Positions 5,327 through 23,270 of a DNA stretch of 64,000 nt are shown one piece after another. A model generated the notes under the pieces. It did no database searches and had not been told where the DNA came from. It was given only the letters and a program-made list of their open reading frames with translations. The stretch is from an uncultured Rhodospirillaceae bacterium (GTDB lineage: Bacteria > Pseudomonadota > Alphaproteobacteria > GCA-2731375). Positions within the stretch are counted from its first letter, which is position 1. Every line of letters begins with the position of its first letter. The stretch covers positions 1,391,533 to 1,455,532 of the forward strand of contig CAYFPL010000001.1 in the NCBI GenBank assembly GCA_964344935.1, written 5' to 3'. The translations under genes were made by a program, and so were the position numbers.

Positions 5327-6781
5327 CTAGTCAAAGCCCGGCGGCGGCTGGAAACCCTGGATCTGTTCAGAAACCAGGCGGCAGAATTCGATCGCCGTCT
5401 TGTCCTCGCCTTCCGCGGCGACGGCCTGCAGGCCGAGGGGCAGGCCTTCGGGGCTGAAACCGGCCGGTGAGACGGTGGAGGGCAAAAACACCATGTTCGG
5501 GAACCCGGCCCAGAAGAGCTGGGTGGTGGTGGGCTGTTCCTTGCCGTTCACGGTGATGGTGCGGTCGTGACGTTCGCCTTCCTGGTCGTGGGGCCAGGCA
5601 GCAGAGGCGGCGGCGGGGCATAGCAATATGTCCCAGTCCTCAAAAAACGCGGCCCAGGCCCGGCGCATGAAATGGCGTTCATTATCCCAGGCCAGCCATT
5701 CCCGATGCGGCATCAGCACGCCCCGAGCCATCCAGGCAAGATAGCTGTCAGGGTCCACGTTCTGATCCGCTTTAACATCTTCGAAGAAACCCAGTTGGGC
5801 CTCGGGCACCCCTTGTGAAGTGGCGGAGCGCAACAGCGCCACATAGACTTCAAAGGCACGGGCCGTATCCACCGCTGGGCGGGCCGTGTCGCAAACCGTG
5901 GCCTCCGCCTTGGCCAGGGCATCGGCCATATTAGCCAGGCAATCCTGGTAGGGTTGATCCACCTCGGCTACCGGATCGCTCAACATCACAGCTACCTTGA
6001 AATCCTTCAGGGCGGTCTTGCGGGGGCCCGGCAGATCCAATCGCCAGGCCGTGGCCTCGTAACGGCCAGGTCCCGCCATGATGTCCAATGAAAGTGCCAG
6101 ATCCTCGGCACTGCGCGCCATGGGGCCAACCACAGCGATATCTGCGTGGTTGTAGACCTCCGGTAATGTATGGCCGTCACCGGGTACGATGCCGTAGGTA
6201 GGTTTGTGCCCGAACACCCCGCAATAATGAGCCGGGTTGCGGATAGAGGCACCTATGTCGCTGCCCGCCTCTAGCCCCGTCAGGCCGGCCGCCAAGGCCG
6301 CCGCCGAGCCGCCGGAGGAGCCGCCGGGTGTACGCTCTAGGCTCCAGGGGTTGTTGGTGGTGCCATAGATGGCGTTGAAAGACTGCCAGTCGGCCAGATT
6401 CAGGGGCACGTTCGTCTTGCCGAAGATATTGGCGCCCGCCGCCAGCAGGCGTTCCACCACTACCGAGTGGCTGTCCGCGATGTTGTCCTTGAGATCGGGG
6501 ATGCCCCAGGTGTTTGGGCTGCCGATCAAATCATAGGCTTCCTTCACGGTCATGGGCACGCCGTGTAAGGGGCCGGCCTCTTCCCCCCTGGCCAGGGCCT
6601 CGTCAGCCGCCTTGGCCCGCGCGCGGGCCCCTTCTGGGTCCATCCAGATGATGGCGTTGAGGGCGGGGTTGTAACGCTCCACCCGGTCCAGGAAATGTTC
6701 CAGAAGTTCAAGCGCGCCGATCTCCCGCGCCTTGATCTTGGCCGCCAATTCGATGGCGGTAGCGAAATGCAGTTCCGACAT
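5327..6781 (-). CDS. amidase-signature family amidase
   Basis: 484 aa. Amidase-signature stretch GGSSGGSAAALAAGLTGLEAGSDIGASIRNPA with the Ser-cisSer-Lys context. Confidence 0.9.
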   Translation of the reverse strand: MSELHFATAIELAAKIKAREIGALELLEHFLDRVERYNPALNAIIWMDPEGARARAKAADEALARGEEAGPLHGVPMTVKEAYDLIGSPNTWGIPDLKDNIADSHSVVVERLLAAGANIFGKTNVPLNLADWQSFNAIYGTTNNPWSLERTPGGSSGGSAAALAAGLTGLEAGSDIGASIRNPAHYCGVFGHKPTYGIVPGDGHTLPEVYNHADIAVVGPMARSAEDLALSLDIMAGPGRYEATAWRLDLPGPRKTALKDFKVAVMLSDPVAEVDQPYQDCLANMADALAKAEATVCDTARPAVDTARAFEVYVALLRSATSQGVPEAQLGFFEDVKADQNVDPDSYLAWMARGVLMPHREWLAWDNERHFMRRAWAAFFEDWDILLCPAAASAAWPHDQEGERHDRTITVNGKEQPTTTQLFWAGFPNMVFLPSTVSPAGFSPEGLPLGLQAVAAEGEDKTAIEFCRLVSEQIQGFQPPPGFD

Positions 6782-14897: not shown

Positions 14898-14971
14898 TGG
14901 GGACTCGTCTAATGGTAGGACAGCGGACTCTGACTCCGTAAGTCCAGGTTCGAATCCTGGGTCCCCAGCCA
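14898..14971 (+). tRNA. tRNA-Gln (anticodon CUG), CCA encoded
   Basis: Folded by hand. Acceptor TGGGGAC/GTCCCCA, D arm GTCT-AATGGTA-GGAC, anticodon arm GCGGA-CTCTGAC-TCCGT (anticodon CTG), variable loop AAGT, T arm CCAGG-TTCGAAT-CCTGG, discriminator G, then CCA. U1-A72 is typical of tRNA-Gln. Confidence 0.95.
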
Positions 14972-15201: not shown

Positions 15202-15217
15202 TTGATACAATAATCAA
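15202..15217. promoter_or_regulatory. inverted repeat TTGAT-N6-ATCAA upstream of the first gene of the FdrA locus (candidate operator)
   Basis: ttgat acaata atcaa at 15202-15217, 20 nt upstream of ATG 15238, in a locally AT-richer stretch. No binding protein is known, so the role is a positional inference. Confidence 0.3.
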
Positions 15218-15237: not shown

Positions 15238-15618
15238 ATGGCGTTCGAACTGTTTGTGAATGGTACCTTGATGCGGGGATTGGCGCTGCACGAGAATTTG
15301 GAGGGCGCGGAGTTTCTTGGTGAGTTCACCACGAAACCCTGTTACCGCCTCTATTCCATCGACGACATCCATCCCGGCATGTTCGAGGTCGCTGAAGGCG
15401 GCGTGGCGGTGAAGGGCGAGATGTATCGTATGAGCGACGAGGTCTGGCGCCGCGTGGAAGATGGGGAACCGCCGCATCTTTATTGCGGTCCCGTTCACCT
15501 GGACAACGGCGAGACCGTCAATGGTATTCTTTTTCCCCAGGAGATCGCGGAAGCAAATTACAAGGACATCTCTCAATTCGGTGATTGGCGGAAGTACATG
15601 GAGTCCAAAGGCTCCTAA
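15238..15618 (+). CDS. stand-alone GGCT-fold protein resembling the C-terminal domain of allophanate hydrolase
   Basis: 126 aa. FVNGTLMRGLALHENLEGAEFLGEFTTKPCYRLYSIDDIHPGMFEVAEGGVAVKGEMYRMSDEVW...PHLYCGPVHLDNGETVNGILF matches my memory of the AH C-domain / gamma-glutamylcyclotransferase-like pattern (T-x-P-x-YRLY ... PG[ML] ... G-x-V-x-GE[VM][WY]). Needs HMM confirmation. Confidence 0.6.
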   Translation: MAFELFVNGTLMRGLALHENLEGAEFLGEFTTKPCYRLYSIDDIHPGMFEVAEGGVAVKGEMYRMSDEVWRRVEDGEPPHLYCGPVHLDNGETVNGILFPQEIAEANYKDISQFGDWRKYMESKGS

Positions 15619-15653
15619 ACCGCCCTCCCCAATACCGACAGCCGCGAGCGGGC

Positions 15654-16334
15654 ATGATCATGAACAATTCCCACGTCATCGAGGCCGAACCCTATCCCCT
15701 GTCGTTCGACGCCGCCAGCACGGCACTGTTGATCATCGATATGCAAAGGGATTTCCTTGAACCGGGCGGCTTTGGAGACATGTTGGGCAATGACGTTTCC
15801 CTGCTGCGCAGAACCATCGAGCCCTGTGCAAGGGTGCTAGACGCGGCCCGGCGGGCAGGTCTGTCGGTGATCCATACCCGCGAAGGCCACAGGCCCGATC
15901 TCACCGACGCACCGCCTACGAAATTGAGCCGGGGCAATCTGCAGACCGGCATCGGCGATGACGGCCCCATGGGCCGCATTTTAGTCCGCGGAGAGCCGGG
16001 CCACGAAATCATCCCGGAACTTGCTCCCAAGGCGGAAGAGCCCGTCATAGACAAACCGGGCAAGGGGGCCTTTTACGAAACGGATCTGGACCTGATTCTG
16101 AAGAATCAGTCGATTAGGACCATCGTCGTCTGCGGTGTCACGACAGAAGTCTGTGTTCACACCACGGTCCGCGAGGCCAATGACCGGGGCTATGAATGTG
16201 TCGTATTGGCCGACTGCGTTGGCTCATATTTCCCTGAATTCCAACGCATAGGCCTTGAAATGATCAAAGCGCAGGGCGGCATATTCGGCTGGGTTGCAAA
16301 TTCGGAATCGCTCATCGCCGCTTTGGCGTCCTAG
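15654..16334 (+). CDS. isochorismatase-family cysteine hydrolase (amidohydrolase)
   Basis: Start taken at ATG 15654 (MIMNNSHVIEAEPYPL). Family motifs: ALLIIDMQRDFLEPGG (catalytic Asp), a conserved Lys region, and VVCGVTTEVCVHTTVREA (nucleophile Cys). Same fold family as BiuH, RutB, N-carbamoylsarcosine amidase and nicotinamidase. Confidence 0.85.
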   Translation: MIMNNSHVIEAEPYPLSFDAASTALLIIDMQRDFLEPGGFGDMLGNDVSLLRRTIEPCARVLDAARRAGLSVIHTREGHRPDLTDAPPTKLSRGNLQTGIGDDGPMGRILVRGEPGHEIIPELAPKAEEPVIDKPGKGAFYETDLDLILKNQSIRTIVVCGVTTEVCVHTTVREANDRGYECVVLADCVGSYFPEFQRIGLEMIKAQGGIFGWVANSESLIAALAS

Positions 16335-16408
16335 CTCACAACTTTGTCATAACAAGCACCTGTGGTCTTATTGACGAACCTGCAATTGCCTAAGGGGAGT
16401 CAATTGTT

Positions 16409-17947
16409 ATGGCGGCAAGAACGCAATACTGGGTGGCCGGCGACCTGAACGCATTTTTTGGCCTCGGCACCAACGTCCTCGTAAATTTGCTGGTCCTTAC
16501 GGGCCTTTTGAAATTTGTCATTCAAATTCCCGACGCCATTCTGTTCGGGCATATCCTGCCGGCGGTCGGCCTGATGCTGTTCCTGGGCAATATCTACTAT
16601 GCCTGGATGGCCAAGAAGCTGGCGGATCAAACCGGGCGCGACGATGTCACTGCACTGCCATCGGGGCCCAGTGTCCCGCATATGTTTATCGTCGTGTTCG
16701 TCATCATGTTGCCGATCACGATTCAGACCAAGGATCCCATCAAGGGTTGGGAAGCCGGGTTGGCCTGGGTCTTTATCGAAGGCCTGGTCCTGTTCGCAGG
16801 CGCATTTATCGCACCGACGATCAGGCGGTTGACCCCGCGCGCCGCACTGCTGGGTACTTTGGCCGGGATTTCCATCACCTTCATTTCCCTACGCCCGGCC
16901 ATGGAGATATTCGAAACGCCGATCATCGGCCTGGTCTCCCTGGTCATCATCCTAGGCGCCTGGTTCGGCGGCGTGCGATATCCGGGCAAGCTTCCCGGCG
17001 GCCTGGTGGCGATCGCGGTCGGCACCATACTGGCGTGGCTCAGCTACATCTTCGGCTGGGGTTTCGGCGGTATGGACCCTGCGGCGGTGCAGAATTCCCT
17101 GGGCAACATCGGTTTCTCCGTGCCCCTGCCCGCCTTCGGCCACGTCTTTTCGGGCTTTGAGTTCCTCGCCTTCATCATCGTCACGGCCATTCCCTTTGGC
17201 GTCTATGACTTCATCGAGGCCATGGACAATGTGGAAAGCGCGGCCGCTGCCGGCGATGAATACAGTGTCAAGGAAACACTGATCGCCGAGGGCGGCATCA
17301 GCCTGGTCGGCACCCTGCTGGGCAGCCCCTTCGCCAACGCCGTATACATTGGCCATCCGGGTTGGAAGTCCATTGGCGGCAAAATCGGCTATTCCATCGC
17401 CACCGGCGCCATGGTCCTGATCCTCACCTGGCTGGGCATCGTTTCGCTGTTGCTTGATCTGATCCCAGTGGTGGCGATCATCCCCATCCTGCTCTACATC
17501 GGCGCCCTGATCGGCGCCCAGGCTTTCCAGGCAACACCGGGCAATCATGCCCCGGCGGTTGTCTTTGCCTTCGTTCCCCATCTGGCAGCCTGGGCGAAAA
17601 CGCTGATCGATGGTTCCCTGGGCGCGGCAGGCACCAACGCAGCGGCCGTCGGCCTGGATAAATTGGCGCAGAACGGCGTTCTCTATAAGGGCCTGGAGGC
17701 GTTGGGGGGCGGTGCCATCATCACCGGCCTGATCTTCGGCGGCATCGTGGTCATGCTGATCGACCGTAACCAGGTTGGCGCCGCCGTGTTCTGCCTGATC
17801 GGGGCGGTCCTGGCGTTCTTCGGCTTCATTCATGGCCCGGCAGTGGGCTTTGCCGTCTCGCCGATGATCGCGCTGAGTTATGTGTTCATGGCGGTCATTT
17901 GCGCCGGTTTCTCGCGCATGGAGGTCGAACAGGAAGCGAGCCAATAG
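16409..17947 (+). CDS. NCS2/AzgA-type (AGZA family) nucleobase-like permease
   Basis: 512 aa, polytopic. N-terminal GDLNAFFGLGTNVLVNLLVL...GNIYYAWMAKKLADQTGRDDVTALPSGPSVPHMF resembles the AzgA/xanthine-uracil permease-like family. SD-like GGGGAG lies 9 nt upstream of the ATG. Confidence 0.75.
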   Translation: MAARTQYWVAGDLNAFFGLGTNVLVNLLVLTGLLKFVIQIPDAILFGHILPAVGLMLFLGNIYYAWMAKKLADQTGRDDVTALPSGPSVPHMFIVVFVIMLPITIQTKDPIKGWEAGLAWVFIEGLVLFAGAFIAPTIRRLTPRAALLGTLAGISITFISLRPAMEIFETPIIGLVSLVIILGAWFGGVRYPGKLPGGLVAIAVGTILAWLSYIFGWGFGGMDPAAVQNSLGNIGFSVPLPAFGHVFSGFEFLAFIIVTAIPFGVYDFIEAMDNVESAAAAGDEYSVKETLIAEGGISLVGTLLGSPFANAVYIGHPGWKSIGGKIGYSIATGAMVLILTWLGIVSLLLDLIPVVAIIPILLYIGALIGAQAFQATPGNHAPAVVFAFVPHLAAWAKTLIDGSLGAAGTNAAAVGLDKLAQNGVLYKGLEALGGGAIITGLIFGGIVVMLIDRNQVGAAVFCLIGAVLAFFGFIHGPAVGFAVSPMIALSYVFMAVICAGFSRMEVEQEASQ

Positions 17948-18024
17948 GGCGTCCTTCCAGGTATCATTGTCCGGGCCGGCCGCGACGGCTGGCCCGGACA
18001 GCGCTGTTTGCTTAGAGCCATGGG

Positions 18025-18885
18025 ATGACACCACTACCCGCCATCAGCCTTGGAATAAATGCACCGCGCGGTGACTTTGCAGGCATCGTCCACAGTGTCT
18101 TTGCACGGGCGGCCAACCTGCGCCTGGAGGATGGCCGGCTGGCGACTTGCACCAACGGCGACTATTTCGAGATGCCGTTGGGCATCCGCATCGAAACGCC
18201 CCGCGCGTTCGATTTTCAAGCGTTCCTGAGGGAAGGCGAGAGTGCCCATTGCCGTGGCGGTATCCTTCGGTTCAACGGCGGCGGATTGAAAGTCGATCTA
18301 CGCACCGCGCGGGTTTGGAACGGTGGCGTTCATATTGTCTCCCCGCCCCAAAGCCGGCCATTGGATGAATTATGGCATATCGCAGAGAAAGGCATTAATG
18401 GCGATGCCACGTTTCCTTTGGCACCGATGGTCTCCCATCTGGCCAATCTGGGCCGCAAAGGTAACCAGGGAGATATGAAATCCTTGCAAGGCCTGATCGG
18501 TACCGGCCCTGGCCTGACCCCGGCGGGCGACGATATGGTCAACGGCTATCTGGCGGCCGCAAAATCATTGGCGCCGAACGAGAATTGGAGCCGGACGTTG
18601 GCATTGCTGACCTTGCAGCATTTATCGTCAACCAATGACGTTAGCCGGCAGATGCTATCTGACGCTGCTGCCGGGCATTTCATCGAGCCATTGCTGAACA
18701 TGCTCTCCGCGATCTACGGTGCCCGGCCTGTCAATCCAGCTGCAGGGCAACTCATGTCCATCGGGGCGACCTCTGGGCCGGCCATGCTGTTGGGTCTATT
18801 GACTGGAATCATGCGGGTCGAAGACAGCCGGCTGCCCGCGTTCGGCCGACCGGCGGCACCCACCGTGGCCCAGGGCAGGTCATAA
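18025..18885 (+). CDS. DUF2877-family protein (E. coli YlbF-like)
   Basis: 286 aa, directly upstream of fdrA (2-nt gap). Size, position in an fdrA/DUF1116/carbamate kinase cluster and the GTGPGLTPAGDDMVNGYL motif fit the YlbF/DUF2877 family. This assignment comes from memory plus context. Confidence 0.6.
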   Translation: MTPLPAISLGINAPRGDFAGIVHSVFARAANLRLEDGRLATCTNGDYFEMPLGIRIETPRAFDFQAFLREGESAHCRGGILRFNGGGLKVDLRTARVWNGGVHIVSPPQSRPLDELWHIAEKGINGDATFPLAPMVSHLANLGRKGNQGDMKSLQGLIGTGPGLTPAGDDMVNGYLAAAKSLAPNENWSRTLALLTLQHLSSTNDVSRQMLSDAAAGHFIEPLLNMLSAIYGARPVNPAAGQLMSIGATSGPAMLLGLLTGIMRVEDSRLPAFGRPAAPTVAQGRS

Positions 18886-18887
18886 CG

Positions 18888-20444
18888 ATGCCGTTCGCGC
18901 AAAAAATCCTGTCCGATACCTACCGGGATTCCGTCGCCTTGATGCGGCTTTCAGCAACCTTGAGCGAACATCCCGAAATCCGTCAGGCCTCCGCCGTTAT
19001 GGCAACGGAGGCGAACATGCAGTTGCTGTTGGAAGCGGGCCTGTTGCAAGAGCCGGTTGAGGCCGCACCCGGAAATCTGATGATCGCCATTGAGGCAGTC
19101 GACGACAACGCGGTCGCAACAGCGTTCGAACAGGCCGAAGCGCTTTTGAACAGCGGGCCGCAACCGGCGGCCAGTGATGGGAACGAAACCGGCGCACCGC
19201 ATAGTCTTGAAATGGCGCTGGATGATTTCCCGGATGCGGATCTGGCGTTGATATCCTGCCCCGGCGAATATGCCGGCGCGGAGGCCATGAAGGCCCTGCG
19301 CCTGGGTCTGGACGTGATGATTTTCTCCGACAATGTGCCGCTTGACGAAGAAATGGCGCTCAAACGTCTGGCCGGAGAACAGGGCAAGCTGGTCATGGGA
19401 CCCGATTGCGGCACGGCGATCATCAACTGCGTCCCCCTTGGTTTTGCCAATGCTGTCGCGCCGGGTGACATAGGCATCGTTGCCGCATCCGGTACCGGCC
19501 TGCAGCAGGTCGCCTGCCTGATCGACGGCCTCGGCGGCGGTATCTCTCAAGCCATCGGCACGGGCGGCCGGGACTTGCACGCGGAAATTGGCGGCATTTC
19601 CATGCTCAACGGTCTGGATATCCTGACGGATGATGCCGCTACCTCTGTCATTGTCCTCATATCCAAGCCGCCCGCGCTGGAGGTTGCCGCCAAGATCCGG
19701 GCTGAGGCGAAGCGATGCGGTAAGCCAGTGGTGGTCAATTTCCTTGGTGCTGAGGCCGGATTGCACAACGACGACAACCTGTTCGCCGCCGAAACATTGG
19801 AACAGGCAGCCTTCGCGGCCTTCGATCTGTCGCGAGGTGATGATCCTTCAATTCGGAAACTGCAACGGCACCCACTGGATGGCGATGCGATCGACGAACT
19901 GCGATCTAGTCTGGAAAGCAGCCAAAAGTTCGCAAGGTGCCTCTACAGCGGCGGCACTTTCAGTTACGAAGCGATGTTACTCCTCGACAAAGACATCGCC
20001 GCCATTCATTCCCCTTCCCCGCTCGATCCCAAATTCAAACTCAATGATGTCTGGTCCAGCACCGGCAATACGGTCCTTGATCTCGGCGACGATCATTTCA
20101 CCAGGGGACGGCCGCATCCCATGATCGATCAGGGCTTGCGATTGGAACGGCTGCGGCAGGAAGCCAACGACCCGGAGACGGCTGTTATTCTGCTGGATGT
20201 GGTCATCGGCCATGGCGCCCATGACTCACCAGCCGACGAGCTGGCGAAATCGATTGCGGAAGTCCGCGCATCTGCGAAGGAGCGCGGCTATTGCCCCCTA
20301 TTCATCGCCTTTGTATGCGGCACGGATAAAGACCCACAGAACCGCACGAAACAATCGGAAATCCTGCGCCATGCCGGCGTCGTATTGACGGATAGCAATG
20401 CCCAGGCGGCGCGCCTGGTTTGCGACCTGCTATCGGGGCGTTAG
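18888..20444 (+). CDS. fdrA: FdrA-family protein (succinyl-CoA-synthetase-alpha-like fold)
   Basis: 518 aa. N-terminus MPFAQKILSDTYRDSVALMRLS, CoA-ligase-like GPDCGTAIIN and GIVAASGTGLQQV motifs as in E. coli FdrA. Confidence 0.85.
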   Translation: MPFAQKILSDTYRDSVALMRLSATLSEHPEIRQASAVMATEANMQLLLEAGLLQEPVEAAPGNLMIAIEAVDDNAVATAFEQAEALLNSGPQPAASDGNETGAPHSLEMALDDFPDADLALISCPGEYAGAEAMKALRLGLDVMIFSDNVPLDEEMALKRLAGEQGKLVMGPDCGTAIINCVPLGFANAVAPGDIGIVAASGTGLQQVACLIDGLGGGISQAIGTGGRDLHAEIGGISMLNGLDILTDDAATSVIVLISKPPALEVAAKIRAEAKRCGKPVVVNFLGAEAGLHNDDNLFAAETLEQAAFAAFDLSRGDDPSIRKLQRHPLDGDAIDELRSSLESSQKFARCLYSGGTFSYEAMLLLDKDIAAIHSPSPLDPKFKLNDVWSSTGNTVLDLGDDHFTRGRPHPMIDQGLRLERLRQEANDPETAVILLDVVIGHGAHDSPADELAKSIAEVRASAKERGYCPLFIAFVCGTDKDPQNRTKQSEILRHAGVVLTDSNAQAARLVCDLLSGR

Positions 20445-20452
20445 AGGCGGAT

Positions 20453-21865
20453 ATGTACGATAAACCGCCAGGATCCCTAAACGTCATCAATGTGGGTATC
20501 GCCTCCTTCGCCGAGGTGGTTGAAGATGCCGGCGGCAAGGCATCGAATGTTGACTGGCGGCCGCCTGCGGGTGGTGATGCCCAGGCGGCATTGGCGCTCG
20601 CCCGGTTGGTTAATGACCCGGCCGTTGATCAGGCGAACAGAGAAGCGTTTCAAAAATACCTCGACGCCAAGCCGATGTTGCAGGGTATCGGACGGGCCGG
20701 AGATGTCATCGCGGGGATGGGCGAACGCACCATTTTGCATTCCGGCCCGCCCATAGACTGGCGGGATGTTTGTGGCCCCGTCCGCGGCGCCCTCGTCGGC
20801 GCTATCTTGTTCGAGGGCTGGGCCGGTGATGAGGAGGGTGCCCTCAGGCTCCTGCGCGACGGCGAGGTGCAAATCGAACCCTGCCACCATTATGGCGCCG
20901 TGGGCCCGATGGCAGGTGTCACCAGCCCAAGCATGCCGGTGTGGATCGTTTGCAATACGACGCACGGAAACACGGCTTTTGCCAATCTGAACGAAGGCCT
21001 GGGCAAGGTGCTGCGTTTCGGCGCCAACAGCGAAGAGGTGATCGACCGCTTGCGCTGGATGGCGTCCACCCTTCGGGAGGTTCTCTCCGCTGCGCTGGCG
21101 GGCGGCGGCATCGATATCAAGACCATCATGGCCCAAGCTCTTTATATGGGCGATGAGGTGCATAACCGAAACGCCGCCGCGACGGGACTGTTGTTGAAGC
21201 AACTGACACCGCCGGCCCTGCGTTCTGGTCTTCCGGCTGACGATGTAGCCGGGGCGTTGGAATTTATTGCAGGCAACGACCATTTCTTTCTGAACGTCTC
21301 CATGGCGGCATGCAAGGCCATGCTCGACGCGGCCCACGGCATCGCCAACAGCACCATGGTGACCGCCATGGCCCGGAACGGCGTTGAATTCGGTATTCGT
21401 GTCAGCGGCACCGGCGATCAATGGTTCACGACGCCGGCGCCGTTGGTCGATGGGCTCTACTTCCCGTCCTATTCCATGGCCGATGCCGCACCGGATTTGG
21501 GCGACAGTGCGATCACGGAAACCGCCGGATTGGGTGGCTTCGCCATGGCGGCCGCGCCAGCCATTGTTCAATTCGTCGGCGGCACGCCGGCAGACGCCAT
21601 CGCCCGCAGCCGGGAAATGCAGTCGATTGCCATAGGGCGAAACAATGCATTGACCATACCAGCCCTGGATTTCGCCGGCACCGCGGCGGGCATCGATGCC
21701 CGGAAGGTTGTCGACACCAGCATTCTGCCCGTCATCAACACCGGCATCGCCCACAAGGATGCCGGCATTGGCCAGATCGGCGCTGGCATTACCCGTGCAC
21801 CCATGGCCTGTTTTTCGAAAGCGTTGTTGGCGTTGAGTTCGTCGGATACCCGTTCTGCGGATTGA
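20453..21865 (+). CDS. DUF1116-family protein (E. coli YlbE-like)
   Basis: Start chosen at ATG 20453 (MYDKPPGSLNVINVG), 8 nt after the fdrA stop and preceded by GAGGCGG. About 470 aa, at the conserved position between fdrA and carbamate kinase. Confidence 0.65.
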   Translation: MYDKPPGSLNVINVGIASFAEVVEDAGGKASNVDWRPPAGGDAQAALALARLVNDPAVDQANREAFQKYLDAKPMLQGIGRAGDVIAGMGERTILHSGPPIDWRDVCGPVRGALVGAILFEGWAGDEEGALRLLRDGEVQIEPCHHYGAVGPMAGVTSPSMPVWIVCNTTHGNTAFANLNEGLGKVLRFGANSEEVIDRLRWMASTLREVLSAALAGGGIDIKTIMAQALYMGDEVHNRNAAATGLLLKQLTPPALRSGLPADDVAGALEFIAGNDHFFLNVSMAACKAMLDAAHGIANSTMVTAMARNGVEFGIRVSGTGDQWFTTPAPLVDGLYFPSYSMADAAPDLGDSAITETAGLGGFAMAAAPAIVQFVGGTPADAIARSREMQSIAIGRNNALTIPALDFAGTAAGIDARKVVDTSILPVINTGIAHKDAGIGQIGAGITRAPMACFSKALLALSSSDTRSAD

Positions 21866-21879
21866 ACCGGGGCTTGGAG

Positions 21880-22839
21880 ATGACAAGCGGAAAGAAAACA
21901 GCCGTTGTCGCCGTCGGCGGCAATTCCCTGATCGTGGATGAGAACCATCAGGCCATACCGGACCAGTACGAAGCCGCCGTCACGACGGTCAAATGCATCG
22001 TTGATATGATGGAGGACGGGTGGAATATCGTTCTGACCCATGGCAGCGGCCCGCAGGTGGGCTATATCCTGCGACGATCGGAGTTGGCGATCGAAGAAGT
22101 CGCACCCGTGCCCATGGACTATGCCGATGCCGACATACAGGGCGCCGTGGGGTACATGTTCCAGCGTGCCTTTCGCAACGAATTCGTCAAGCGGGGGATC
22201 AAAAAGGACGCCGTCGCCGTGGTCTCCCAGGTGTTGGTTGATCGCGCCGACCCCGCCTTCGGCAACCCTACGAAACCGATCGGGCCGCAGTTGGACGAAG
22301 CGACGGCCAAGGCGCGGGCGGCGGAACTTGGTTGGGTCGTGAAGGACGATGCCGGGCGCGGCTGGCGAAGAGTGGTACCGTCACCGTCGCCTAGAAAAAT
22401 CCTTGAGCTGGCGCAGATAAATCTTCTGGCCGAGGGCGGATACGTGGTCATCGCCTGCGGCGGCGGCGGCATCCCGGTCGTCGAAAATGAAAAGGGTTAT
22501 CTGGTTGGTGTCGAAGCCGTCGTGGACAAGGACCTCGCCTCAAGCCTGCTTGCAAGCGACCTCAAGGCAGATCTTTTTGTTATCACCACCGCAGTGGACC
22601 GGGTCGCCGTCGACTATGGCACGGCGGAAGAGGAATGGCTGGATACCCTTGAACTGGCACGGGCCAAGGAACTTTACCAGGCCGGCCAATTCGATCCTGG
22701 CAGCATGGGCCCGAAAGTTCTCGCCATGATCCAATTTCTCGAACACGGCGGCGCCAAGGGCATTATCACAAGCCCTGAAAACCTGACCAAATCGATCAAG
22801 AATGCTTCGGGTACTATGTTCGTTCGGTCGGCTCCTTGA
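21880..22839 (+). CDS. arcC: carbamate kinase
   Basis: Track ORF is over-extended. True start at ATG 21880 (MTSGKKTAVVAVGGNSLI), 319 aa. Motifs VLTHGSGPQVG, PTKPIGP, VIACGGGGIPVV and VVDKDLASSLLA are canonical carbamate kinase. Confidence 0.92.
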   Translation: MTSGKKTAVVAVGGNSLIVDENHQAIPDQYEAAVTTVKCIVDMMEDGWNIVLTHGSGPQVGYILRRSELAIEEVAPVPMDYADADIQGAVGYMFQRAFRNEFVKRGIKKDAVAVVSQVLVDRADPAFGNPTKPIGPQLDEATAKARAAELGWVVKDDAGRGWRRVVPSPSPRKILELAQINLLAEGGYVVIACGGGGIPVVENEKGYLVGVEAVVDKDLASSLLASDLKADLFVITTAVDRVAVDYGTAEEEWLDTLELARAKELYQAGQFDPGSMGPKVLAMIQFLEHGGAKGIITSPENLTKSIKNASGTMFVRSAP

Positions 22840-22868
22840 AGCAGCTGTTGTCGGCAACAATTGCTTTT
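22839..22868 (+). terminator. weak hairpin/terminator candidate after carbamate kinase
   Basis: AAGCAGCTGTTG-TCGG-CAACAATTGCTT (12-bp stem with one G-U pair and one mismatch), then TTCA. The U-tract is poor. Confidence 0.3.
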
Positions 22869-23270
22869 CAAGAAGGCATGGAATGAACGATCTCTTTAGA
22901 GCTCAAAACAAGGCAATTTTGTATGGCGCTCCGCCGAGAGCACCATTTACGCCAGTTGTGTTGGCTTGCTGTCGAGAGTAAGCGAGTTATTCGGGAGCCG
23001 ATTGCTCGGCCGGCGCTGCCATGTGGGAATGGGATTCCTGAGCGGCCAGGACCGTTGCGCCCAACAGCAGCAGGAAGGCGAGGACAACACGCGTCCAACG
23101 GCGGTCGGATTGCTTGTCGTAACTGACGGCGCGGATAATCGGCACTGGCTGTCCCCGGCTGTTTTGTGTTTTTCGCGTTCATCCGCGAAGGCGCAGCTAT
23201 CTTGGCGCCTGGCCGTAAATATCCCCTTAAGGGAAAAGGTTAATTTGCCGAATTCAACGCGGTTTAGCGT

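Follow-up and report, generated by a model that had tools for sequence, protein, structure and literature searches.

A TrtA-Type Cysteine Hydrolase Encoded with AllFGH-Like Proteins and Carbamate Kinase in a Candidate Poly-Ureide Catabolic Module of an Uncultured Rhodospirillaceae Bacterium

The window (the whole 64 kb stretch of DNA analyzed here) contains a block of seven genes in which a TrtA-type (triuret-hydrolase-like) cysteine hydrolase is encoded next to homologues of AllH, AllF and AllG (HFG) and a carbamate kinase (K). These genes may well work together, in operon-like fashion, in the catabolism of a small poly-ureide. The compound, most likely triuret (carbonyldiurea) or one very similar to it, would be used as a nitrogen source with recovery of ATP. 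The AllFGH oxamic transcarbamylase and the H-F-G-K order of the E. coli yah cluster were known beforehand; what is new is the pairing of a TrtA-type hydrolase with HFG-K, the spread of the module over many phyla and an E. coli island, the mutual exclusivity with BiuH and the existence of variants with allophanate hydrolase. A preliminary description of the window took the locus for its best candidate for an undescribed system; the locus is in fact widespread, forms part of the ExPEC tkt1 island, and three papers have commented on it at the level of annotation.

Organization of the Locus

All seven co-directional open reading frames of the preliminary description were found on the plus strand, separated by intergenic gaps of 35, 74, 77, 2, 8 and 14 nt, and the tRNA-Gln (CTG) gene is indeed located 266 nt upstream of the first of them. 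The features are as follows.

14898..14971, plus strand: tRNA-Gln (CTG), found by ARAGORN; upstream boundary of the module, outside the module
15238..15618, plus strand: D, standalone AH_C-like/GGCT-fold protein, 126 aa
15654..16334, plus strand: Hyd, TrtA-type (triuret-hydrolase-like) isochorismatase-family cysteine hydrolase, 226 aa
16409..17947, plus strand: Perm, permease of an unmodelled family, predicted 7+7-TM UraA/NCS2-SLC26-type fold, 512 aa
18025..18885, plus strand: H, AllH/DUF2877 subunit, 286 aa
18888..20444, plus strand: F, AllF/FdrA subunit, relative of succinyl-CoA-synthetase alpha, 518 aa
20453..21865, plus strand: G, AllG/DUF1116 subunit with an N-terminal extension, 470 aa
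21880..22839, plus strand: K, carbamate kinase, 319 aa; alternative start at 21862
22838..22867, plus strand: weak hairpin followed by UUUUC, just 3′ of the kinase stop; possible terminator

At the corresponding upstream position, the two loci nearest to the window in synteny carry no tRNA. Genes predicted independently on an identical metagenome contig are the same for the first six; the kinase begins there 18 nt further upstream, at the equivalent of 21862. The hairpin at which the locus had been said to end does exist (−11.3 kcal/mol); shuffled sequence folds about as well (z = −0.6), and a terminator scan did not call it. As had been reported, genes of the allantoin route are missing: no match to E. 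coli allA/B/C/D/E/S/R, gcl, hyi, glxR, glxK, allW or ybbY was retrieved by tblastn from the 64 kb at E ≤ 1e-4, and no regulator gene lies within the seven-gene block or adjoins it.

The Hydrolase Is of the TrtA Type

The hydrolase matches the Pfam Isochorismatase family (2.2e-48, 165 bits) and scores 287 bits against the BiuH equivalog, under the cut-off of 370. Its top PDB matches are the TrtA entries 6XIX, 6XJ4 and 6XJE (276 bits, gapless, ~60–63% identity). The triad D24/K129/C162 and the substrate contacts F29, E72, K132 and Q202 are present. At the positions whose role in discriminating TrtA from BiuH was described previously (PMC7948467), the protein has the TrtA-specific F35, N41, E160, Y187 and I205 and not the residues of biuret hydrolases. 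The same five residues, together with all triuret contacts, are found in 48–49 of 55 module-linked hydrolases, among which BiuH-type proteins occur only as second copies in Nitrospira.

The hydrolases linked to HFG-K lie beside canonical TrtA as its sister clade and not within it (bootstrap 74 and 95 of 100). They are 57% identical to characterized TrtA and differ from it consistently by M167V, L179V, T184V and V206F, located beside the Q202 loop. It is therefore conceivable that they act on a compound other than triuret.

The association with BiuH was analyzed in 80 metagenome loci picked by similarity to the characterized Herbaspirillum TrtA. A BiuH-type gene is located directly upstream of the TrtA-type gene in 41–45 of the 80, many of the contigs being too short for it to be seen, and allophanate hydrolase often accompanies the pair. 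AllF, AllG and the kinase are absent from all BiuH + TrtA loci of this set. The four loci with a window-type permease encode hydrolases 67–72% identical to that of the window, and one of them has the order Perm-D-Hyd-F-G-K. The HFG-K-linked clade is, Nitrospira excepted, without BiuH. Given this exclusivity at the level of loci and the separate sister clade, BiuH and HFG-K appear to be alternative partners of TrtA-type hydrolases. In Nitrospira loci BiuH, TrtA and HFG-K are all present together, which is compatible with two independent pathways.

AllH, AllF and AllG Homologues and Carbamate Kinase

The assignment of region 18025–21865 to the DUF2877, FdrA and DUF1116 families was borne out by profile HMMs, with matches of AllH to PF11392 (3.2e-23, 83 bits), of FdrA to PRK06091 (480 bits, cut-off 433) and of AllG to PF06545 (8.4e-96, 320 bits). 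The labels AH_C, isochorismatase and carbamate kinase were likewise placed by HMMs; only that of the permease was left without a match. AllH is 30% identical to its E. coli namesake over 174 aa, and the motif G-x-G-x-G-L-T-P-x-G-D-D is invariant; its AF2 model (pLDDT 91) has no significant structural neighbour in the PDB. FdrA shares 39% identity with its E. coli counterpart and 41% with YahF, and matches PDB entry 3DMY (FdrA) with 261 bits. Over its full length AllG shares 52% identity with AllG of E. coli and 49% with YahG (3CLQ, 437 bits), and its residues 10–52 align with the tail at the C-terminus of E. coli FdrA. The kinase scores 356 bits against PRK12352 (cut-off 266) and 350.5 bits against TIGR00746 (versus 358), with 44% identity to YahI and 36% to AllK.

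The statement that the enzymology and structure of this assembly are essentially unexplored is outdated. E. coli AllFGH has been purified and assayed as an oxamic transcarbamylase (oxalurate + Pi <-> carbamoyl phosphate + oxamate) coupled to AllK (Kim & Kim 2024, PMC11326118), the carbamate kinase AllK was characterized in 2022 (PMC9843812), and crystal structures of FdrA (3DMY) and of a DUF1116 protein (3CLQ) are available. At 52% identity to the oxalurate enzyme of E. coli, the AllG of the window could have retained oxalurate specificity. Since the hydrolase, the AH_C-like protein and the permease stand in place of allECD and allB, the substrate is probably not allantoin-derived oxalurate.

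Recurrence of the Gene Set

Comparison was made with the 80 genome loci closest to the window AllG, taken with 10-kb flanks, so that BiuH, AtzF or urease could be encoded farther off. The hydrolase is present in 50 of these loci (32 of 42 among those with full 10-kb flanks) and the kinase in 49 of the 50. An AH_C-like sequence occurs in 39 module loci, as standalone D in 33 and as the C-domain of full-length allophanate hydrolase in the rest; a window-type permease occurs in 30–34. No allB, allC, allD or allE was found in any of the 80. The carriers belong to Alpha-, Beta- and Gammaproteobacteria, Nitrospira, Chloroflexota, Actinomycetota, Bacteroidota, Spirochaetota, Verrucomicrobiota and Bacillota. 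In E. coli, the module is part of the ExPEC tkt1 genomic island, or GR29 (Li et al. 2012, PMC3349570; PMC12928451); 1,556 of the 5,426 complete genomes carry the island, against no more than 3 with a detectable atzF. Each module has one transporter and, where present, at most one regulator.

Recurrence in dozens of unrelated genomes places the gene set far beyond chance, and the retention of the set across phyla while its order is shuffled argues for functional coupling. The location of DUF2877 before fdrA, thought unusual at first, is the norm: H-F-G-K is the usual order in this AllG clade, and E. coli yahE-yahF-yahG-yahI has it too. Bootstrap support for the AllG crown group as a monophyletic clade is low (41 of 100). 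Other HFG clades have other upstream enzymes: in E. coli this is the amidohydrolase YahJ, and in anaerobes there are molybdoenzymes resembling XDH.

The Permease and the AH_C-Like Protein

No Pfam, NCBIfam or PDB sequence match to the permease was found, even at E = 10. It has >8,000 homologues, labelled AGZA-like permease by JGI and "regulator" by NCBI. The best Foldseek matches of its AF2 model (pLDDT 64, pTM 0.63) are UraA, SVCT1, SLC26Dg and BicA, with E about 5e-6; the model thus matches the general UraA/SLC26/SLC4 fold. The earlier label of AzgA-type permease was not confirmed, with AZG1 only at rank 48 and E = 0.057 against E. coli AdeQ in BLASTP.

Protein D matches Pfam AH_C (PF21986; 1.5e-32, 113 bits) and GGACT (7.7e-12). 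Its top PDB match, 5C5Z (72 bits), is a standalone protein of 137 aa with the very sequence (100% identity) of the "allophanate hydrolase-related protein" encoded in the E. coli island (c4763). The C-terminal domain of allophanate hydrolase was reportedly proposed by Fan et al. in 2013 to be an N-carboxycarbamate decarboxylase. D and this domain have a common core (G9, G14, Y36, R37, P46, E61, G84, G91, W117 and R118); however, D is standalone, whereas the AH_C domain of allophanate hydrolase is fused to an amidase domain. In the C-domains of nine full-length allophanate hydrolases one His never varies; the window protein has Leu there, as do 93% of standalone D proteins, and S13R, R45H and I77E are further consistent replacements.

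Full-length allophanate hydrolase (TIGR02713, ~800 bits) is encoded in 9–11 module loci. BiuH is missing there, which points to a non-BiuH route to allophanate. These loci are also without standalone D, and 33 loci show the reverse, D and no full-length enzyme. Since the enzyme-bearing loci come from few related lineages, this complementarity rests on few independent events.

Proposed Pathway and Alternatives

From these data, we infer a substrate, an order of steps and a reaction of the HFG complex. The UraA-fold permease would import the compound and the TrtA-type hydrolase would deamidate it, triuret giving carboxybiuret and NH3. The HFG complex, a paralogue of E. coli oxamic transcarbamylase, would then move the terminal carbamoyl group from the N-carbamoyl carboxylate to phosphate (carboxybiuret + Pi -> carbamoyl phosphate + allophanate), and might do so again with allophanate, yielding carbamoyl phosphate and carbamate; both carboxybiuret and allophanate closely resemble oxalurate. 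Carbamate kinase would convert carbamoyl phosphate and ADP to ATP, NH3 and CO2. The N-carboxylated remainder may be handled by the small AH_C-like protein, or by full-length allophanate hydrolase in some variants. The preliminary view of a compact, self-contained module that takes up its substrate, hydrolyses an amide, transfers a carbamoyl group and employs a carbamate kinase, separately from the allantoin route of E. coli, is supported; of the candidate substrates offered with it, the evidence points to the biuret/allophanate type, now refined to triuret-type.

Could the locus instead house two independent functions, the hydrolase and the AH_C protein acting on triuret or biuret, and HFG with the kinase being an ordinary oxamic transcarbamylase for imported oxalurate? 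Nitrifier genomes have been read as carrying separate functions, and Nitrospira loci have a complete BiuH/TrtA set plus HFG-K (PMC12625717). Triuret/biuret and oxalurate are both products of urate or purine oxidation, and AllF, AllG and AllH show homology (39%, 52% and 30% identity) to the enzyme proven to act on oxalurate. However, a single transporter and at most one regulator serve each module, and in most carriers, nearly all E. coli with the island among them, the product of the hydrolase would go no further for want of BiuH/AtzF. That canonical TrtA loci are never found with HFG-K, and that the linked hydrolases form a clade of their own, is not expected from random co-location, and the oxalurate-producing allD, allE and allC are found in 0 of 80 loci. 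We regard co-located functions as unlikely.

It is decidedly unlikely, in our estimate, that a single linear pathway serves another substrate, the hydrolase deamidating a different acyl-ureide amide (e.g., oxalurate amide or a urate/pyrimidine oxidation product) to oxalurate or another N-carbamoyl acid that HFG would phosphorolyse. The sister-clade position of the linked hydrolases with changes by the specificity loop (V206F), the remodelled putative active site of D and the HFG clades with YahJ or XDH-like molybdoenzymes, from which the family evidently accepts varied N-carbamoyl donors, agree with such a pathway. Against it, all triuret contacts of the TrtA crystal structure and the five TrtA-versus-BiuH discriminators are kept, the full-length allophanate hydrolase of some variants suggests chemistry of the allophanate kind, and no natural substrate candidate is known. 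A pyrimidine/cytosine nitrogen-scavenging island, proposed for E. coli GR29 (PMC12928451), in which a RutB-like hydrolase frees carbamate from ureidoacrylate-type intermediates for processing by the kinase and FdrA, is highly improbable. The E. coli version does have an NCS1 "cytosine permease"-like transporter and a distantly RutB-like hydrolase; however, the 126 bits that the window hydrolase scores for the RutB equivalog are far under the cut-off of 378 and also under its BiuH and TrtA scores. A survey of the recurring locus families, as distinct from a direct Rut search, showed no homologues of rutA, rutC, rutD, rutE or rutF, and a catabolic carbamate kinase starts from carbamoyl phosphate and not from free carbamate.

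Comparison with Known Systems

The tkt1 island of E. coli has orthologues of the hydrolase, DUF2877, FdrA, DUF1116, carbamate kinase and AH-related proteins (68%, 30%, 47%, 60%, 56% and 41% identity to the window, respectively). It differs by its NCS1 "cytosine permease"-type transporter, a LysR regulator and the order Hyd-H-F-G-K-D, and also bears tkt1 and PTS genes.

With E. coli AllFGH-AllK the window shares the three families, an adjoining catabolic carbamate kinase and, presumably, N-carbamoyl phosphorolysis to carbamoyl phosphate and substrate-level ATP formation. Identity of AllF, AllG, AllH and AllK is, however, only 39%, 52%, 30% and 36%, the order is H-F-G-K instead of F-G-H-K, the ~45-aa C-tail of E. 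coli FdrA is the N-terminus of AllG in the window, and the TrtA-type hydrolase, AH_C-like protein and permease replace allECD and allB. The E. coli K-12 yahE-yahF-yahG-yahI cluster has the same H-F-G-K order, almost the same protein sizes (287/515/472/316 aa versus 286/518/470/319 aa in the window) and the same N-terminal extension of YahG. F and K are slightly nearer to Yah (41% and 44%) than to All proteins; G is nearer to Yah by bit score (442 versus 411), yet not by identity (49% versus 52%). The yah cluster is flanked by the ankyrin protein YahD and the metal-dependent amidohydrolase YahJ, in place of the cysteine hydrolase, AH_C protein and permease of the window.

The triuret pathway of Herbaspirillum sp. 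BH-1, TrtA-(TrtB)-BiuH-AtzF (Tassoulas et al. 2020, PMC7948467), shares with the window the hydrolase triad, the triuret contacts and the five TrtA-specific second-shell residues. The window has no BiuH partner, no TrtB (AtzH/HpxZ-family) and no AtzF, and its hydrolase clade is always linked to HFG-K, whereas Herbaspirillum-type TrtA is not. The downstream chemistry, purely hydrolytic in Herbaspirillum BH-1, is proposed to be phosphorolytic and ATP-yielding in the window.

Organization and Boundaries of the Module

The module consists of seven plus-strand genes, and a listing of open reading frames reproduced the block together with the coordinates, gaps and tRNA distance given in the preliminary description. 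The products of H, F and G (hereafter HFG) are predicted to form a three-subunit carbamoyl-transfer complex.

Features of the module and its upstream border (positions, strand, product, profile score)
14898-14971, tRNA-Gln, 266 nt upstream of the module
15238-15618, +, D, small standalone AH_C/GGACT protein, 113 bits
15654-16334, +, isochorismatase-family hydrolase, 165 bits
16409-17947, +, 512-aa membrane protein (permease), without Pfam or NCBIfam match
18025-18885, +, H, AllH (DUF2877), PF11392, 83 bits
18888-20444, +, F, FdrA, PRK06091, 480 bits, over the cut-off
20453-21865, +, G, AllG (DUF1116), PF06545, 320 bits
21880-22839, +, K, carbamate kinase, PRK12352, 355.7 bits (cut-off 266)

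The intergenic gaps are 35, 74, 77, 2, 8 and 14 nt, those between H and F and between F and G being 2 and 8 nt, with K starting 14 nt 3′ of AllG. Independent gene calls on an identical metagenome contig gave the first six genes the same sizes and placed the kinase start 18 nt earlier. Profile HMMs placed six of the seven products, including all three encoded by positions 18025-21865 (DUF2877, FdrA and DUF1116), but the permease was left without any match.

Both flanks are unrelated to the module: housekeeping and neighboring genes (guaB, a transglutaminase-like gene, rlmE and ppx) lie upstream, and a small ORF and genes for a GGDEF-EAL protein, an acyl-CoA dehydrogenase and a luciferase-like oxygenase lie downstream. 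The GC content is unremarkable. The weak hairpin previously described at its end does exist 3′ of the last stop codon but is no better than those of shuffled sequence. A promoter search detected no σ70-like site upstream of the module, and the upstream region showed no conservation in L058 and L060, the syntenic loci nearest to it. A short inverted repeat, TTGAT-ACAATA-ATCAA, is located at 15202-15217, 20 nt before the start codon of D. An operator function is possible, although a repeat with arms of 5 bp may also have arisen by chance. The idea of a tRNA-linked island was discarded, since an integrase is absent and the border lacks a tRNA in relatives that share the gene order.

The interval from the module to the GGDEF-EAL gene holds a 104-aa ORF without a Pfam match (22868-23182, minus strand), which may not be genuine. 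An amidase-signature protein (5327-6781, minus strand; PRK06170, 602 bits) is encoded 8.5 kb upstream amid housekeeping genes. It is the sole amidase in the window and is not an allophanate hydrolase (AH). No second hydrolase, biuret hydrolase (BiuH) or full-length AH was found in the 64-kb window.

The Hydrolase Is TrtA-Type by Its Residues

The best PDB matches of the hydrolase are the triuret hydrolase (TrtA) entries 6XIX, 6XJ4 and 6XJE, to which it aligns without gaps. Residue roles in TrtA and BiuH and the definition of their second-shell positions were taken from PMC7948467, where TrtA is described as converting triuret to carboxybiuret and NH3. The window protein belongs to the isochorismatase-like fold family and carries the D24/K129/C162 triad and the triuret contacts F29, E72, K132 and Q202, and the same residues recur in no fewer than 52 of the 55 hydrolases adjoining AllG. 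At the second-shell positions that separate the two enzymes (F35, N41, E160, Y187 and I205) it reads FNEYI, whereas BiuH has Y, Y, D, T and V. The full TrtA signature is present in 48-49 of the 55 AllG-adjoining hydrolases, and BiuH-type proteins among them are second copies in Nitrospira only. Biuret hydrolase identity was rejected, with a score of 287 bits against NF050097 (cut-off 370) and all discriminating residues being TrtA-type. Judged by these residues, the window hydrolase is TrtA-type.

In a quick neighbor-joining tree (100 bootstraps), all TrtA-type hydrolases form one clade (100/100), and further clades unite the canonical BiuH-linked enzymes, to which Herbaspirillum TrtA and the TrtA copies of Nitrospira belong (95/100), and the HFG-K-linked ones (74/100). 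The window hydrolase falls in the latter, a sister clade outside that of the characterised TrtA. Identity is 71% inside the HFG-K-linked clade and 57% between it and the canonical one. Consistent differences between the clades are M167V, L179V, T184V and V206F, the last of which lies beside the Q202/I205 specificity loop.

The Transcarbamylase Subunits and Carbamate Kinase

Two marks of the AllFGH system of E. coli are present in the module: the FdrA, DUF1116 and DUF2877 families are encoded together, and a catabolic carbamate kinase gene adjoins AllG. The kinase scores slightly under the cut-off of the arcC equivalog TIGR00746 (350.5 versus 358.25 bits) and is recognized as a carbamate kinase through PRK12352. 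Linkage to allB, allC, allD or allE was found neither in the 64-kb window, where tblastn detected no homologues of the E. coli allantoin regulon besides the module's own AllFGHK-like genes, nor in any of 80 related loci (the best 80 of at least 594), which agrees with the absence of allantoin genes reported initially.

The renaming to allFGH/allK, mentioned in the preliminary description, is correct. Its statement that the enzymology is essentially unexplored is outdated, because AllF-AllG-AllH was purified and assayed in 2024 and shown to be the oxamic transcarbamylase (oxalurate + Pi <-> carbamoyl phosphate + oxamate; PMC11326118), after AllK had been established as a catabolic carbamate kinase in 2022 (PMC9843812). 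Oxalurate activity has so far been assayed with the E. coli enzyme only (PMC11326118). As to structures, said to be equally unexplored, structural-genomics entries exist in the PDB for FdrA (3DMY) and a DUF1116 protein (3CLQ), but none was found there for DUF2877. The predicted model of the window DUF2877 protein (pLDDT 91) has an N-terminal OB-like β-barrel and a helical domain, the latter housing the invariant GxGxGLTPxGDD motif, which reads GTGPGLTPAGDD in the window protein. A fold search of the PDB with this model returned no significant neighbor; what it gave were weak matches between the N-terminal barrel and OB-folds (best E 0.01). The third subunit of the enzyme family is therefore structurally uncharted.

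The D Protein and Variants with Allophanate Hydrolase

D belongs to the AH_C family (PF21986, 112.7 bits, cut-off 27). At 126 aa, without an amidase-signature N-domain, it scores 61 bits against the allophanate hydrolase profile TIGR02713 (cut-off 511). The His of the GAH-M-SG motif, found in 9/9 C-domains of full-length AH, is Leu in D and in 93% of its standalone homologues, and further consistent swaps accompany this change. With the invariant His missing, carrying the function of the AH C-domain straight over to D is unjustified; a 2013 study by Fan et al. reportedly proposed that this domain is an N-carboxycarbamate decarboxylase. An identity of D with TrtB, the carboxybiuret decarboxylase, was rejected as well, TrtB being of the AtzH/HpxZ family.

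ORF clustering without overlap filtering, combined with motif checks, brought out AH genes in GC-rich loci. A bona fide full-length AH (TIGR02713 ~800 bits, cut-off 511) stands beside F-G-K and a TrtA-type hydrolase in 9-11 module loci, which stem from few lineages. These loci have no standalone D, and 33 loci show the reverse (D, no AH). Since the AH-bearing variants have no BiuH within their 10-kb flanks, allophanate must arise in them by another way.

The Permease

Searches with the 512-aa permease gave no Pfam, NCBIfam or PDB sequence match, even at E = 10 or by profile. Its family, which includes homologues P0001-P0120 and has more than 8,000 hits, lacks a Pfam or NCBIfam model; it is labeled "regulator" by NCBI and "AGZA-like permease" by JGI, and the former name, carried by many NCBI records, looks like a propagated misannotation. 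The AlphaFold model of the protein is of moderate confidence (pLDDT 64) and matches UraA, SVCT1, SLC26Dg and BicA (E ~1e-5, TM 0.46-0.60), which points to a putative transporter of the general UraA-type fold with 7+7 TM segments. The original label "AzgA-type" could not be upheld: a Pfam Xan_ur_permease match is absent, the BLASTP match to E. coli AdeQ is not significant (E = 0.057), and AZG1 is only at rank 48 among the fold matches.

Distribution of the Gene Set

An AllG-alignment scan with one genome per species yielded at least 594 relatives, the best 80 of which were kept and their 10-kb flanks inspected. Among these best 80, a hydrolase 53-81% identical to that of the window is present at 50 loci (32 of the 42 with full 10-kb flanks). 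Of the 50, 49 have the kinase, 39 an AH_C-like sequence (a standalone D in 33, the C-domain of AH in the rest) and 30 the window-type permease. The gene set recurs across many phyla and was found in Rhodospirillales, Burkholderia, Caballeronia, Serratia, Vibrio, Aeromonas, Dyella, Pseudomonas and Nitrospira, as well as Chloroflexota, Mycobacterium, Chryseobacterium, Spirochaetota, Verrucomicrobiota and Lysinibacillus.

The order of the genes differs between carriers and the set itself is retained. The order D-Hyd-Perm-H-F-G-K (Hyd, hydrolase; Perm, permease) is that of Rhodospirillales, including the window, and Hyd-H-F-G-K-D-NCS1-LysR that of many Beta- and Gammaproteobacteria. Transporters are swapped (UraA-fold family, NCS1 type or BmpA-NupABC), and GntR or LysR regulators are frequent. 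A clean monophyletic clade of hydrolase-linked AllG is not robust in a quick neighbor-joining tree (bootstrap 41/100); Chloroflexota and Verrucomicrobiota members float.

Distant H-F-G clusters, with AllG relatives 53-57% identical, were found in anaerobes (L061, L070, L074, L075, L076, L079 and L081) belonging to Bacillota, Halanaerobiales, Spirochaetes and Anaeromyxobacter. Their neighbors are subunits of XDH-like molybdoenzymes, a uracil/xanthine permease and PucR- or GntR-type regulators, and carbamate kinase was detected in L075 and L079 only. These clusters probably represent the purine-fermentation form of the system. At six other loci (L016, L021, L022, L023, L040 and L059), AllG, 62-67% identical to that of the window and mostly accompanied by AllF, has no hydrolase within 10 kb; L016 alone has the kinase. 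The neighbors of hydrolase-less AllG genes may point to further substrates of the enzyme family.

Among 5,426 complete E. coli genomes, 1,556 (~29%) carry the module, between ysgA/udp and metE. In strain 2014C-3338 (locus L083, 3807-12003) it has the order Hyd-H-F-G-K-D-NCS1-LysR and makes up half of the tkt1 island associated with ExPEC. The AH_C protein of the island is the one crystallised as c4763 (PDB 5C5Z). By blastn, whose sensitivity limits the comparison, atzF (AH) is detectable in 3 E. coli genomes versus the 1,556 with the island. Within phylogroup B2, the reported frequency of the tkt1 genomic island is 80.6% for uropathogenic and 94.1% for meningitis-associated isolates (PMC3349570).

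BiuH and HFG-K Are Alternative Partners of TrtA-Type Hydrolases

A scan led by the characterised Herbaspirillum TrtA provided 80 metagenome loci. In 41-45 of them, the TrtA-type gene is immediately preceded by a BiuH-type gene (many contigs end too early for an upstream gene to be visible), and a full-length AH often accompanies the pair. Genes for AllF, AllG and the kinase were found in none of the BiuH-linked loci. The hydrolases of the four loci with the window-type permease are 67-72% identical to that of the window, and one of these loci has the order Perm-D-Hyd-F-G-K. Conversely, no BiuH was found in the window or in the 10-kb flanks of module loci outside Nitrospira. BiuH and HFG-K are alternative, mutually exclusive partners of TrtA-type hydrolases.

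Two loci of comammox-type Nitrospira (L008 and L009, ~10-18.5 kb) encode BiuH-type and TrtA-type hydrolases, H-F-G-K, BmpA-NupABC and an AH_C-like protein. Nitrospira is the only lineage with both partner sets among the loci compared.

A Proposed Route from Triuret to ATP

Triuret is a product of urate oxidation and a fertiliser impurity and is reported in human urine; its canonical hydrolytic route yields no ATP. Carbamate kinase forms ATP from carbamoyl phosphate. In the proposed pathway, the TrtA-type hydrolase would convert triuret to carboxybiuret and NH3, and HFG would, most plausibly, convert carboxybiuret and Pi to carbamoyl phosphate and allophanate. We infer the latter step because carboxybiuret (H2N-CO-NH-CO-NH-COO−) and allophanate (H2N-CO-NH-COO−) are close analogues of oxalurate (H2N-CO-NH-CO-COO−), all three being N-carbamoyl carboxylates. 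The kinase would then make ATP from carbamoyl phosphate. Allophanate would be removed by allophanate hydrolase in the AH-bearing variants and, in modules of the window type, by D (the AH_C-like protein) and/or another round of phosphorolysis, for a net conversion of triuret to 4 NH3 and 3 CO2 with 1-2 ATP.

The model builds on what the comparisons show, namely the families of the proteins, the signature residues of the hydrolase, the conserved linkage of the gene set and its mutual exclusivity with BiuH, and as a whole we give it an even chance of being right. More tentative, and somewhat short of that, is the full claim that HFG of this clade phosphorolyses carboxybiuret, and possibly allophanate, rather than oxalurate, that it replaces BiuH in taking triuret to 1-2 ATP, and that this also holds for the tkt1 island, comammox bacteria and archaeal nitrifiers.

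The reading in PMC12625717, by which independent triuret and oxalurate functions are merely co-located, would suit Nitrospira, which carries every component. It appears unlikely, however, for a module that has a single transporter and lacks BiuH and AtzF, and whose linkage is clade-specific. A somewhat lower probability attaches to a single pathway acting on a different TrtA-like substrate, with oxalurate or another N-carbamoyl acid as the product. The island has also been listed as GR29, with a loosely guessed role in pyrimidine metabolism (PMC12928451); we consider a pyrimidine or RutB-type role highly improbable.

If the triuret pathway is correct, the family of three-subunit catabolic transcarbamylases would gain a second substrate class, and there would be a reason why a large TrtA-like clade has no BiuH, a partner required in the triuret pathway as published. 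It would add an energy-conserving branch to the catabolism of urea oligomers and urate-oxidation products, with a bearing on fertiliser impurities, marine and soil nitrogen cycling and nitrifiers. It would also provide a testable function for half of an island that ~29% of complete E. coli genomes carry and that is overrepresented among uropathogenic, meningitis-associated and avian pathogenic strains. The hosts of these strains are rich in urate.

Comparison with Known Systems

The module was initially proposed as the best candidate in the window for an undescribed system, but the gene set was annotated earlier in the tkt1 island (2012; PMC3349570), in nitrifier MAGs (2025; PMC12625717) and as GR29 (2026; PMC12928451). 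In the literature searched, we found no experimental work on the module, and neither TrtA-like typing of its hydrolase nor the view that HFG-K stands in for BiuH. What is new here is the inferred substrate for a catabolic transcarbamylase/carbamate kinase system.

Compared with the E. coli All proteins, the window F, G, H and K are 39%, 52%, 30% and 36% identical. They are about as close to YahF, YahG and YahI (41%, 49% and 44%), products of the paralogous yahE-yahF-yahG-yahI cluster of E. coli K-12, which a confirmed triuret pathway would help to assign. The window and Yah clusters have in common the H-F-G-K order, protein sizes and an N-terminal extension of G; the DUF2877-first order, regarded at first as unusual, is therefore not so. 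In E. coli FdrA, the counterpart of the first ~50 residues of the window AllG (20453-20620; compared with L001, 17200-17348) and of YahG is the C-terminal tail (PRK06091 positions 512-554). It follows that the F/G gene boundary is shifted between the All type and the type shared by Yah and this clade, and this shift hints that the segment is an F-G interface element.
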